Positions 5,067 through 16,505 of a stretch of 16,505 nucleotides of DNA are shown piece by piece; position 1 is the stretch's first letter; each line of letters begins with the position of its first letter. Made by a program: the position numbers and the translations under genes. The notes under the pieces are model-generated. The model was not told where the DNA came from, searched no databases, and saw only the letters and a program-made list of their open reading frames with translations. Origin of the DNA: a virus; UHGV virus genome UHGV-0075529. The stretch is one strand, 5' to 3'.

Positions 5067-5743
5067 CGCCATTGCTCTCCGAAGGTGAAGCCAATCTCTG
5101 CCAGCGCCTCGTCCATCTTTTCGATGAACTCCGGCACCATCTCGTCGAAGTCGGCCATGTATTTTTCATCCCGCTCAACCACGACGTAATGCAGCCCCTC
5201 GCGCTTCATGCGAGGGTCGTAGTTGGCAAAGAACCAGGCTGGATTTTTGTTTACCCACATGCTGTATTGCACCTGGGCCATGTAGTCCGCTTTGATGGCA
5301 TCGAAGCCGCCGAGCCGGAACTTCATGAAGTCTCGGGAGGTGAACGGGCATTTCAGCTCGAGGCCAAATCCGTTACTGCACAGGCCGTCTGGTGAACAGG
5401 CGGTGCGCATGGTTTCATCGCGAAAGAGGATCGGTGATTCGATGACGCTCACTCCGGTCGTGAACTCAAACAGGGTGCGTGCGTCCTCTTCGTACTGCTT
5501 GCCCCAGGCAAGCGCCTTTGCATTCACCTCCGGCGCTACACCGGTGCATACCTCAGCGAGGAGGGTGTGGAAGTAGGACATCTTCATGCAAGTCCATTTG
5601 GTGCCGCTGCGCGGTTTTGAAATGACGTTATGAACCTCAGATGCGGTGATAACACCGAGGCGAAGTCGATGCCACTCCTCATCACCCTGTTCGATTCTGG
5701 TCACATCAATGCCGGTTCGCGCCAGGATGATTTCTGGTGTCAT
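5063..5743 (-). CDS. exo: Lambda-type 5'-3' exonuclease (Red-alpha / YqaJ family)
   Basis: 226 aa, near-collinear with lambda Exo as recalled ([14 protein letters not shown]..., [32 protein letters not shown]-terminal FGEQWR). Confidence 0.9.
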
Positions 5744-8930: not shown

Positions 8931-9143
8931 CTACAACTCATCACGAATCTGTGAGAGTGTGCTGATCGCCTGGTAATGACCGCGACGCTGCTCTTCTGTT
9001 TTGAACGCGCGCATATCGTCTTTTATCGATGCGATTGCCTTATTCAGAACTTCCACTTGCGCTTCTTTAATCGCCTGTTTGCGTGGCTTCTGACGCTTCT
9101 TAGGAAGGTCTCTTAAACACGCCGGAATGTATGTCTGAGTCAT
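8931..9143 (-). CDS. Basic 70-aa protein, first gene downstream of pL (N position; antiterminator identity unproven)
   Basis: ORF with SD AAGAGGA; Lys/Arg-rich stretch LPKKRQKPRKQAIKEAQ near the N-terminus; position matches lambda N. Confidence 0.5.
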   Translation of the reverse strand: MTQTYIPACLRDLPKKRQKPRKQAIKEAQVEVLNKAIASIKDDMRAFKTEEQRRGHYQAISTLSQIRDEL

Positions 9144-9348
9144 AAAAAATCCTCTTGTGATTCAGCACAGCCCACTCAGCTTCGAATGGACTGGAATAAA
9201 TCTTTTTTTCGCTTTGCCATAATTGCCGCTCTCCCTGAGCCCGCCTATGGTCCGACGCATGGTTTACTGTCGCGCCGTTCGACTGACCGAATCTCCACTT
9301 CGCCGCTGGCTAACTTCGCTCAGCTGTCGATGTTTCGTTTCGATGGGG

Positions 9349-9430
9349 TAAATTTAGCGTGATGCTAAATTATGCGCAATAGCAAAATGCTAAATTGTTG
9401 AATGGTTTTATTTAGCGTATTGATTAATAA
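9349..9430 (-). promoter_or_regulatory. OL operator triplet with pL promoter
   Basis: 17-bp sites TTTAGC-N5-GCTAAA at 9353-9369 (perfect), 9378-9394 and 9411-9427 (imperfect); on the minus strand -35 TTGCGC (9379-9374), 17-bp spacer, -10 TAAATT (9356-9351). Confidence 0.6.
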
Positions 9431-9466: not shown

Positions 9467-9490
9467 AAAAAAGCCCGCGCGATGGCGGGC
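9467..9490 (-). terminator. Intrinsic terminator downstream of cI (minus strand)
   Basis: Stem GCCCGC (9473-9478) / GCGGGC (9485-9490), loop GCGATG, followed on the minus strand by TTTTTT (plus A-run 9467-9472). Confidence 0.6.
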
Positions 9491-9510
9491 TTGAGGGGTT
9501 TTGCGTGAGG

Positions 9511-10188
9511 TTATGGGATGTTTAGTATTTTGGCATCAACCACAACGCCGATGATTTTGCAGTTTCCATTAATTTCTAGCATTGGATATGCGGGGTTAAG
9601 GGGCTTTAGGAAGCGTCTGCCGGCATCGATTACAAGCTTCTTAAAGGTCGCTTCGTTATCGCCTTCTAGCTTCGCGACAACCAGCTTTCCGTTGCGCGGC
9701 TCGACTTCAGGATCAACAAGTATCGCTGCTCCCTCGGGTATGCTCAGTCCAGCCGGGGAGGTCATAGAATCCCCTTTAACGTCCAGCCAGAATGAATCTT
9801 CTGAGCAGTCAACAGTCGTGTCATACCAGCGATCTATCGCTCTTCGGTGATAAGGTTCTACAGCTTCCATCCATTGCCCCGCGCTTACCCAGCTGATTAC
9901 AGGATAACTTCCTTTTGTCTCGTTCAGTCCTCGAAATGCAACGTTCGAAGGTTCTTCACTGGCGTGTAAAACATCCATCCAGCCAAAAGGCAGATCAAGC
10001 GCAGTTTCAATTTTGCGAGCCATCTTATCGCCGATATTGCGATGAGGGTTTGGTCCCAGTAGCTGGCTAAGCGCAGCCGGACTTGTCTCGATGAGCTCGG
10101 CAAACTGCGCTTTGGTCATTCCAGACTCGTGCTGACGCTTCTCGTACAGCGCTTCCAGGTTGGCTTTTCTGATTTCTTTATTTTCCAT
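9511..10188 (-). CDS. cI: cI-type prophage repressor (N-terminal HTH, C-terminal S24 LexA-like autopeptidase)
   Basis: Start taken at ATG 10188 (MENKEIRKANLEA...); C-terminal domain has the catalytic Ser in GDSM, a downstream Lys, and an Ala-Gly candidate cleavage site (SWVSAGQW). The ORF track runs to 10305 across the operators. Confidence 0.88.
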   Translation of the reverse strand: MENKEIRKANLEALYEKRQHESGMTKAQFAELIETSPAALSQLLGPNPHRNIGDKMARKIETALDLPFGWMDVLHASEEPSNVAFRGLNETKGSYPVISWVSAGQWMEAVEPYHRRAIDRWYDTTVDCSEDSFWLDVKGDSMTSPAGLSIPEGAAILVDPEVEPRNGKLVVAKLEGDNEATFKKLVIDAGRRFLKPLNPAYPMLEINGNCKIIGVVVDAKILNIP

Positions 10189-10304
10189 ACCTGCATTGTT
10201 ACTGCTTTTAGCAAAATGATAAATATGCAAATTGCTAAATGATGCTTGCGTAGTATTTAGCATAACGCTAAACTCCAAATCAAACGACTCACCCGGAGAC
10301 ACCA
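10189..10304. promoter_or_regulatory. OR operator triplet with divergent PRM/PR promoters
   Basis: 17-bp sites at 10207-10223 (TTTAGC-AAAAT-GATAAA), 10223-10239 (weak) and 10256-10272 (perfect TTTAGC-ATAAC-GCTAAA); PR candidate -35 TTGCGT (10246-10251), 17-bp spacer, -10 TAAACT (10269-10274). Confidence 0.7.
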
Positions 10305-10538
10305 ATGAGCACTGAACTACACCGCTGGCGCAAGGCCGCCACTACCGACGAATGGGCGCAGCTCGCAAAGTTGGCTAACACGACGCCAGGTTACCTGGAC
10401 CAGATCGCCTACGGAAATCGCCGGGCATCTCCAGAAATGGCATCTGCTATCGAGAAAGGCACGAAGAATTTTCACCGCCAGGCTCCGGTCCTAAAAGAAA
10501 GCCTGGTATTCGCATCGCCGCGTGATACTGCGGCCTAA
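10305..10538 (+). CDS. cro: Cro-like / YdaS-family HTH DNA-binding protein
   Basis: 77-aa ORF divergent from cI across the operator region; SD GGAGA 7 nt upstream; HTH-like segment EWAQLAKLANTTPGYLDQIAYGNR. Confidence 0.65.
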   Translation: MSTELHRWRKAATTDEWAQLAKLANTTPGYLDQIAYGNRRASPEMASAIEKGTKNFHRQAPVLKESLVFASPRDTAA

Positions 10539-10555: not shown

Positions 10556-11122
10556 ATGCATTCACTTGCGTATCAACAGAGTACCGGACTTGAACAACGT
10601 CCGTTGATTTCGATTTATCAAAGTGTTCCGCGTAATAACCGTAAGCTAACTCGAATACGGGAGGCAGTTAAGGCCTGGCAAAAAGCTACGCCGGGCCAGT
10701 CTCAGGTTCACATTTCTCAGCTGGTTGCGAAAGAGTGGCTGGCGCGCGGCGGGAAGGGGTTGTTACTGGCAGGTTCTGAACACAACACGAAGCAGAACTT
10801 CTTCCGGATGATTAACGATCCGGGCCCGAAGAACGACAAGGGGTTGATGCTACTGATCCCCGTCATTATCGACGTGATGGCGCGGGATAACGAGAAAGTG
10901 GCGAGAGAGTTCGGTCTGGTCGCAAAGACTGAGGCCGAACTGATAGCCGAGGCCATGAAAGAGTGCACTGAAGCGCATCAGGCGAAGTTACTTGGTCAGC
11001 CGATACAACGCCTTGAGAAAGAGGTGAGAGAAGCTGCTGAAGCACTTCTGCGCTTTCTGCCCACTGAATCAATCGCCGCGGTGGTGACAAGTCTGGCCGC
11101 TATGGCGCCGGGAGTTATGTGA
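10556..11122 (+). CDS. YdaT-like protein in the CII position
   Basis: 188 aa immediately after the cro-like gene; segment KEWLARGGKGLLLAGSEHNTKQNFFRMIN resembles Rac YdaT as recalled. Confidence 0.55.
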   Translation: MHSLAYQQSTGLEQRPLISIYQSVPRNNRKLTRIREAVKAWQKATPGQSQVHISQLVAKEWLARGGKGLLLAGSEHNTKQNFFRMINDPGPKNDKGLMLLIPVIIDVMARDNEKVAREFGLVAKTEAELIAEAMKECTEAHQAKLLGQPIQRLEKEVREAAEALLRFLPTESIAAVVTSLAAMAPGVM

Positions 11123-15882: not shown

Positions 15883-16455
15883 ATGTCTGGTTGGGATAAC
15901 GGTATAGATGCAGTTTCTGCGATTGCAGCTATCGCATATGGAAACTCCGTCTATGTAGAATTTGACCGCGAAGCACAATCACTTGATGCAGCTATCGCAT
16001 CTGCGGTAGCAACTTATTTAGCATGGCGATCCTCAGAAGCTAGCAGGGCCACATCCGAAAAAGCTTTGCAGTTGCAAGGAAAGCAGTATTTGTACGAGAC
16101 ATTAAAAGCTTGCGCTGAGAGAGCGAATTCATACTCAAAAGGAAAGAAAGGGGCTGACTGGAGCTTTCATGACGCAGCCAATATTGTTCGATGTTTGAAC
16201 ATGGCAATGGGGAGCATAATAAATTACTCAGATACCAACAATCAGGATGCAATGAAAGGTCTGAAGCAATTCTTTATTAGCCAATTAAACATGGAGCTTT
16301 TTGAAGAGCTCAACTATGAGGTTGGGCCTGATGCCTTCTTTCACGGAGAGGAGCTAACCAGCATGACGAGCGATATTTACTCGCAGTGGTTAAACATTAT
16401 TTCATTCTTTAACCTCATGATTGTCACAGATGATGACCTCGCCGATGAAACATAG
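15883..16455 (+). CDS. Hypothetical protein, 190 aa, in a visibly AT-richer segment (candidate moron / accessory gene)
   Basis: Clean ORF starting right after a terminator; lower GC by eye than the replication genes; acidic C-terminus (TDDDLADET); no motif recognised. Confidence 0.65.
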   Translation: MSGWDNGIDAVSAIAAIAYGNSVYVEFDREAQSLDAAIASAVATYLAWRSSEASRATSEKALQLQGKQYLYETLKACAERANSYSKGKKGADWSFHDAANIVRCLNMAMGSIINYSDTNNQDAMKGLKQFFISQLNMELFEELNYEVGPDAFFHGEELTSMTSDIYSQWLNIISFFNLMIVTDDDLADET

Positions 16456-16505
16456 CTTGATTGATTTTCCATAATCAACCCGCCATAATCATGTCATCGG
16501 AGCCT

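Follow-up and report, generated by a model that had tools for sequence, protein, structure and literature searches.

The intergenic region at positions 10189 to 10304 of the DNA analyzed here very probably contains the immunity switch of an H-19B-lineage lambdoid prophage. The DNA is a stretch of 16,505 nucleotides from the virus genome UHGV-0075529 (the window), and it covers the left arm of a lambdoid prophage together with its immunity region. The 116 bp of the intergenic region separate a cI-type repressor gene from a divergent cro-like gene and contain three operator sites (OR), and a second triplet (OL) lies beyond the 3' end of the repressor gene. The switch is an uncharacterized H-19B-type lambdoid immunity region with a variant operator that carries G where H-19B has T or C; mechanistically, it holds nothing unexpected. 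The sites, their statistical significance, their conservation, their co-variation with the recognition helix of the repressor, and the identities of the genes were established directly.

The repressor gene (9511 to 10188, minus strand) encodes a predicted 225-aa protein that begins MENKEIRK and combines a helix-turn-helix (HTH) N-domain with an S24 autocleavage domain. The Pfam match to the S24 peptidase domain had an E value of 1.9e-29, and the match to HTH_3 was borderline (22.9 bits, with a cut-off of 23). The alignment with the lambda repressor (3BDN) covers residues 10 to 218 (E value 5e-32), and within it the Ala-Gly cleavage site, the Ser nucleophile, and the Lys all align (vsAGqw/vqAGmf, gdSMt/gnSMt, and tfKKl/tfKKl). 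Between the repressor gene and OL, 3' of the gene, is an intrinsic terminator (9471 to 9492, minus strand) with an 8-pair stem followed by a T run, which is also kept in Klebsiella phage KO-TP1. The cro-like HTH gene (10305 to 10538, plus strand; Shine-Dalgarno GGAG at 10295 to 10298) encodes 77 aa, and its product matches phrog_35, transcriptional repressor. The S24 and 3BDN matches, together with the 61% identity of the second protein to H-19B Cro, confirm that the flanking genes are a divergent pair of cI and cro-like type, as the preliminary description had it.

Outside the operator region, and as context only, the cro-like gene is followed by a gene for a YdaT-family, cII-like regulator (10556 to 11122, plus strand), whose product matches phrog_163, CII-like activator (E value 4.7e-38), and is named "toxin YdaT family protein" in RefSeq. 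O-like and DnaB-like replication genes come after it. The genes upstream on the minus strand encode RecT, an exonuclease, a Dam methylase, and an integrase that adjoins a host thioesterase gene. The window is 99.7% identical to E. coli prophages, with the match carried by 127 of 5,426 complete E. coli genomes, and KO-TP1 is 91% identical to it.

The operator consensus is TTTAGCR-N3-YGCTAAA (17 bp). Perfect copies of TTTAGC-N5-GCTAAA occur only twice in the 16.5 kb, at 10256 to 10272 and at 9353 to 9369, compared to 0.00 expected and none in 200 shuffles. Allowing up to two mismatches, we found six matches against 0.60 expected, a number reached by no shuffle, and five of these six fall within two 75-bp clusters. 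The remaining match, at 5352, is inside the exonuclease gene and looks like chance.

At OR, the perfect site OR-c (OR1-like; 10256 to 10272, TTTAGCATAACGCTAAA) lies within the core of the predicted PR, at -84 from the cI ATG, the position at which it is found in the family. OR-a (OR3-like; 10207 to 10223, TTTAGCAAAATGATAAA) has one mismatch, is centered 27 bp before the cI ATG, and overlaps the -35 and spacer of a proposed PRM. OR-b (OR2-like; 10223 to 10239, ATATGCAAATTGCTAAA) is centered 43 bp before the ATG and has three mismatches, with the consensus present in its right half only (GCTAAA, 10234 to 10239); base pair 10223 is common to OR-a and OR-b. Of the three 17-bp sites first described, the perfect one and the one-mismatch site at 10207 to 10223 stand, but the middle one is only half-consensus and abuts the cI-proximal site. 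A search of 10150 to 10340 at up to four mismatches yielded no fourth OR site, with two junk matches otherwise.

The OL triplet consists of OL1 (9353 to 9369, TTTAGCGTGATGCTAAA), which has no mismatches and sits between the -35 and -10 of the predicted pL; OL2 (9378 to 9394, AATAGCAAAATGCTAAA), which has two mismatches and an off-consensus half overlapping the TTG of the pL -35; and OL3 (9411 to 9427, TTTAGCGTATTGATTAA), which also has two mismatches. Measured center to center and starting from the perfect site, successive OR sites are 33 and 16 bp apart and successive OL sites 25 and 33 bp apart, and at 25 bp from OR-c there is no site that would make OR a true mirror of OL. The two regions therefore mirror each other, as had been proposed, in the core promoter but not in the spacing of their sites.

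The predicted PR (10246 to 10274, plus strand) has a -35 of TTGCGT (10246 to 10251), a 17-bp spacer, and a -10 of TAAACT (10269 to 10274), with a start expected near 10281; the claim that the perfect OR site overlaps the spacer and -10 of this promoter holds at the coordinates first given. The recurrence of this arrangement on the other strand, TTGCGC-17-TAAATT with a perfect operator at 9353 to 9369, is equally accurate: the predicted pL (9351 to 9379, minus strand) has its -35 at 9379 to 9374 and its -10 at 9356 to 9351 and would run leftward from about 9344. In PR and pL alike, the perfect operator spans the spacer and reaches four bases into the -10. With only 7 of 12 positions in agreement with TTGACA/TATAAT, both fall below the threshold of a consensus sigma-70 promoter scan, which reported none between 8900 and 10600. 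It is their position and conservation, rather than their likeness to the consensus, that lead us to call these putative promoters. The TTG of the PR -35 is unchanged in 53 close relatives, and at pL both the TTG and TAAATT are unchanged in relatives, with variation at the remaining -35 bases (KO-TP1, for example, has TTGCCA).

PRM had not been located in the preliminary description. We propose a specific, leaderless candidate (10195 to 10223, minus strand) with a -35 of TTTATC (10223 to 10218), a 17-bp spacer, a -10 of AACAAT (10200 to 10195), and then 6 nt before the ATG at 10188. The hexamer nAnnAT is present at -12 to -7 in 82 of 90 distinct upstream regions, often with TG or nG just before it, and within the close group its A2 and T6 are invariant while the neighboring bases vary freely. 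This conserved hexamer predicts a leaderless cI mRNA from PRM, as in lambda. The lambda PRM reads TAGATT, TAACGT, ATG, that is, a -10 hexamer, 6 nt, and the start codon, and the candidate PRM has the same geometry. Leaderless repressor genes are documented for lambda and for paaR2 of CP-933P (PMC8630535). The -35 of the candidate, TTTATC, is the off-consensus half of OR-a.

We searched for relatives with the repressor N-domain and recovered 63 genomic and 80 viral loci that were 38 to 100% identical. In nearly all loci down to approximately 45% identity, the same 17-mers lie 84 and 35 bp before an ME.K start. About 100 distinct loci, with N-domains 45 to 100% identical, have sites at these two positions. 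The full layout of -84, -51, and -35 before the repressor ATG likewise persists to repressors that are about 45% identical, H-19B included, and relatives have an OL triplet downstream of the repressor gene. Loci with the layout come from Enterobacter, Citrobacter, Klebsiella, Atlantibacter, Pectobacterium, Pantoea, Sodalis, Biostraticola, and Serratia. Across 102 distinct loci, at one mismatch or fewer, we counted 160 sites in the 86-bp OR interval and none in approximately 240 kb on the cro side. In P22 c2, used as a control, the C-domain is homologous and the N-domain different, and none of these sites is present in the P22 operator regions. The motif near cI homologues, which had been suggested earlier as a way to delimit an immunity group, delimits a broad operator class rather than one immunity group. 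The idea that the hexamer consensus by itself defines the immunity specificity of this prophage does not hold, since in Serratia, Pectobacterium, Pantoea, and Sodalis the same half-site serves N-domains with only about 45% identity.

As a footprint of selection on individual positions, we computed, for 53 distinct close relatives, the minimum changes that each alignment column requires. Per column, these were 0.12 for OR-c, 0.13 for OR-b, and 0.35 for OR-a, compared to 1.19 for the spacer between OR-c and OR-b, 1.83 for the spacer between OR-a and the ATG, and 1.86 for third codon positions of the repressor gene. The 17-mers therefore change 5 to 15 times less than the spacers, which change about as much as synonymous sites. 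The sole invariant block in the spacer between OR-c and OR-b is CAAG, the complement of the TTG of the PR -35. OL gave a similar picture across 69 distinct regions, with fixed operator halves (those of OL1 included), a fixed TTG of the pL -35, and a fixed TAAATT in otherwise variable sequence.

One could suppose that only the two perfect sites are functional and that OR-a, OR-b, OL2, and OL3 are kept for promoter functions, such as the PRM -35 or UP-like A/T tracts. We consider this unlikely. It would account for the three mismatches of OR-b, for the proposed PRM -35 falling on the off-consensus half of OR-a, for the overlap of the off-consensus half of OL2 with the pL -35, and for OL3, which is kept in close relatives and missing in several distant ones. 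The off-consensus half of OL2 (GCTATT in the cI orientation) is in fact invariant across relatives because it overlaps the TTG of the pL -35. However, the consensus halves of OR-a and OL2 are invariant as well, and in relatives of the T type TTTAGC gives way to TTTATC in the good half of OR-b, in step with the main operator type. In addition, a review reports several OR sites in H-19B (PMC8065619). OR-a itself is found at -35 in nearly all loci of the family, always with one half off-consensus; this half is TTTATC or TTTACC in every family member, G-type phages included, which would be because it doubles as the PRM -35. The resulting hybrid, TTTATC or TTTACC with GCTAAA, was seen in G-type phages and in many T-type phages, H-19B among them. 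Such a hybrid is what one would expect of an OR3-like site that is kept weak on purpose and supplies, with its left half, the -35 of PRM.

The extent of the operator region depends on where the repressor gene starts. We place the start at ATG 10188, giving 225 aa. RefSeq/PGAP, KO-TP1, and every close database entry instead start the gene at ATG 10263, inside OR-c, giving 753-bp genes and a protein of 250 aa. Were that start correct, the intergenic region would shrink to 41 bp, the coding sequence would take in OR-a, OR-b, and half of OR-c, and the conservation of the sites would reflect constraint on the protein, in particular on the peptide FSNLHIYHFAK. The longer form has been annotated by both PGAP and KO-TP1, it was called in 21 of 21 database clusters at least 83% identical, where the frame is open, and a GGAG lies 9 nt upstream of ATG 10263. 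The pattern of substitution nevertheless indicates that the added stretch is non-coding and makes the longer form very unlikely. In the extra 75 nt, substitutions by codon position numbered 17, 21, and 22, without periodicity, compared to 72, 46, and 177 in the gene. The spacer codons of the extra stretch are hypervariable (TTQAS, IKQER, LAQDV, and others), in contrast to a mature protein that is 83 to 99% identical, and what is conserved in it corresponds precisely to the halves of the palindromes, the PR TTG, and the nAnnAT hexamer. Homologues that are 55 to 68% identical overall have an ME.K start or in-frame upstream stops and still keep the same sites, and the same motif recurs at OL, outside any gene. 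The peptide FSNLHIYHFAK, considered as a protein constraint, was rejected: it is OR-b and OR-a translated. The ATG 10263 start looks like a systematic annotation error that arises from an open frame running across the operators.

Evidence on which protein reads the sites came from the recognition helix. In the window repressor, this helix reads SPAALSQ (residues 36 to 42, approximately 10063 to 10083). Among the relatives is a sub-family with TTTATC-N5-GATAAA, comprising Pantoea latae, Erwinia, Hafnia, Rahnella, Photorhabdus, Xenorhabdus, Proteus, and H-19B, and the base at operator position 5 tracks the helix 3 residue that precedes Leu-Ser-Gln. A Gln at this residue (Gln-Leu-Ser-Gln) accompanied T or C at position 5 in 14 of 14 distinct N-domains, and Ala, Thr, Met, Val, or Gln-Phe accompanied G in 46 of 47. 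On a neighbor-joining tree, the position-5 switches comprise approximately three independent events, few in number and fully concordant. This co-variation is the strongest computational argument that the repressor HTH would read these sites, and it is what ties the sites to the window repressor. With the conservation footprint, the fixed layout, and the P22 control, it also backs the original operator and promoter calls.

The palindromes might instead be mainly sites for Cro or another factor, with the cI-type repressor reading a different motif or taking part in an antirepressor-type circuit. Cro and cI share operators, so sequence alone cannot tell which protein exerts the selection, and the operator OB of KorB, from IncP plasmids, has the same hexamer half-sites (TTTAGC-S-GCTAAA, 13 bp). 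We nonetheless judge this reading highly improbable: the base at position 5 follows a residue in the recognition helix of cI, the distance between the sites and the cI start is constant, and the homologous region of H-19B is reported to be repressor-bound (PMC8065619). Identity with the KorB operator was examined and rejected, given that the spacer is 1 bp in OB and 5 bp in all six sites of the window, that KorB is a ParB-family binder, and that the context here is not a plasmid. The likeness of the hexamers is a coincidence of sequence, not a relationship. A full-text literature search for TTTAGC/GCTAAA with "operator" and "repressor" returned no phage paper on this operator.

The closest characterized relative of the proposed repressor-read switch is that of H-19B. 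Shi and Friedman (2001) characterized its early promoters and its operators, the latter by experimental mapping, as cited in the review (PMC8065619). The review reports repressor binding at the homologous region and four OR sites (PMC8065619), in contrast to three in the window at up to four mismatches. The H-19B cI N-domain is 51% identical to that of the window over 75 aa and shares the start MENK(E/D)IRK. H-19B Cro, like the cro-like protein of the window, is 77 aa long, with the 61% identity extending over the full length (77 of 77 residues). In H-19B, OR is laid out identically in 17-bp sites, with TTTACCATTTTGATAAA at -84, TTTATCATATTGCGTAT at -51, and TTTATCCATTTGCTAAA at -35 from the cI ATG; its PR, TTGCGG-17-TAAAGT, is placed around the distal site as in the window, and GAAAAT occupies -12 to -7 where the window has AACAAT. 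The differences lie in the half-sites, which are TTTACC or TTTATC (T or C at position 5) in H-19B and TTTAGC in the window; in the recognition helix, SPSQLTQ versus SPAALSQ, where the co-varying residue is Gln versus Ala; in the lambda-type cII of H-19B versus the YdaT-family protein of the window; and in the cI C-domain, which is not closely related to that of the window (overall cI identity 37%). The window therefore shares with the H-19B immunity type the N-domain and Cro homology and the OR layout, but not the operator sequence that homo-immunity would entail.

These comparisons raise the tentative idea, which we regard as possible rather than probable, that a single recognition-helix position sets the position-5 base (Gln for T or C; Ala, Thr, Met, or Val for G) across an Enterobacterales-wide family of prophage repressors, that of H-19B included, while the rest of the switch stays fixed: where the sites lie, the leaderless PRM, and the cI-proximal site with its deliberately hybrid sequence. 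If true, this would be a natural immunity switch of one residue and one base pair, and immunity classes, including those of Stx1 phages, would be predictable from sequence and could be re-engineered.

The features of a lambdoid cI-type switch were found in the window: a repressor with HTH and S24 domains, a divergent cro-type gene, and operators at OR and OL over the predicted early promoters. As in lambda, three 17-bp pseudo-palindromes lie between divergent cI and cro genes, a second triplet is found at OL beyond a terminator, the strongest site is in the lytic promoter core, the middle site is approximately 42 to 43 bp before the cI start, and the repressor C-domains are homologous (3BDN, E value 5e-32). 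The operator sequence, however, is unrelated to that of lambda. The perfect site of the window falls between the -35 and -10, whereas in lambda the site is over the -10; the OR spacings are 33 and 16 bp rather than 24 and 23 bp; and the distance from OL to OR is 0.9 kb rather than 2.4 kb.

We also compared the window to the switch of the CP-933P/Rac type (PaaR2 or RacR, YdaS, and YdaT; PMC8630535, PMC9986795). Both have a YdaT-family cII analogue downstream of the cro-like gene, both have PR and PL core elements that are near-identical to each other, and the leaderless repressor gene of the CP-933P/Rac type is likewise predicted in the window. On the other hand, the CP-933P operators are 18-bp repeats (consensus GTTTAGTAA) rather than 17 bp, PaaR2 is without the S24 domain that the window repressor has, and the cro-like protein of the window is a homologue of H-19B Cro. 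Inverted repeats of the CP-933P YdaT type, TTGATT-N6-AATCAA, were seen at 10604 to 10621, with one mismatch and 48 nt into the ydaT-like gene, where an analogue of PRE might sit, and at 16461 to 16478, a perfect copy directly past an ORF that ends at 16455. These two matches, against 0.97 expected in the window, are not above chance.

We envision the switch as follows. Dimers of the 225-aa repressor would bind the 17-bp operators, and repressor on OR-c and OL1, between the -35 and -10, would shut PR and pL by occlusion; the weaker sites are probably filled cooperatively. The center of OR-b, at -43, is where lambda cI at OR2 activates PRM, so a comparable role may apply here. PRM (TTTATC-17-AACAAT, 6 nt, and ATG) would produce the leaderless cI mRNA, and OR-a, over the proposed PRM -35, would shut repressor synthesis when repressor or Cro is high. 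On induction, RecA-stimulated self-cleavage at Ala-Gly would free PR and pL. That the repressor binds, the order in which sites fill, the activation by OR-b, and all transcription starts are inferred. Whether OR-a and OR-b are occupied simultaneously, and whether activation follows the lambda style, is uncertain because OR-b has three mismatches and shares a base pair with OR-a. Further points that count against this explanation are the 33-bp spacing of OR-c and OR-b (24 bp in lambda), the 7 of 12 consensus positions in PR and pL, the ATG 10263 annotations with their GGAG, and a co-variation that comprises only about three events.

The practical value of these results is modest, and the understanding of lambdoid switches is unchanged. 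They supply sequence-level operators, predicted PR and pL, and a candidate leaderless PRM for a module that is carried by 127 of the 5,426 complete E. coli genomes and also occurs in many Enterobacter, Klebsiella, and Citrobacter prophages, and they correct what looks like a systematic error in the repressor start codon of database entries. The link to the experimentally studied H-19B switch makes knowledge transferable, and the co-variation between the recognition helix and the operator amounts to a simple specificity rule, open to test, for predicting which of these prophages are cross-immune.

Several minor observations concern the surroundings of the switch. Rfam and tRNA scans of the window gave no matches. 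The pL leader (9200 to 9344, minus strand) did not fold better than shuffled sequences (z score of -1.0), therefore no nut-like hairpin can be claimed there. A 31-codon ORF beginning MRRTIGG (9259 to 9164, minus strand), for whose expression there is no evidence, lies in this leader upstream of the first pL gene, which encodes a 70-aa protein (phrog_5305; 8931 to 9143, minus strand). A mosaic joint was detected at approximately 9209 to 9222, about 135 bp downstream of the predicted pL start, where the near-identity with E. coli prophages stops; the E. coli FDAARGOS prophage has a different gene in place of the phrog_5305 gene. In a locus from Serratia rubidaea (L062), the repressor homologue has an in-frame stop within the recognition helix and the operators are intact, probably reflecting a decaying prophage. 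Finally, OL lies 1.4 to 2.7 kb from the repressor start in several relatives, compared to the usual 0.8 kb (L009, L010, L012, L092, and L126, at +1445 to +2667 from the cI start), which implies that cargo genes can be inserted between OL and the repressor gene, comparable to rexAB in lambda.
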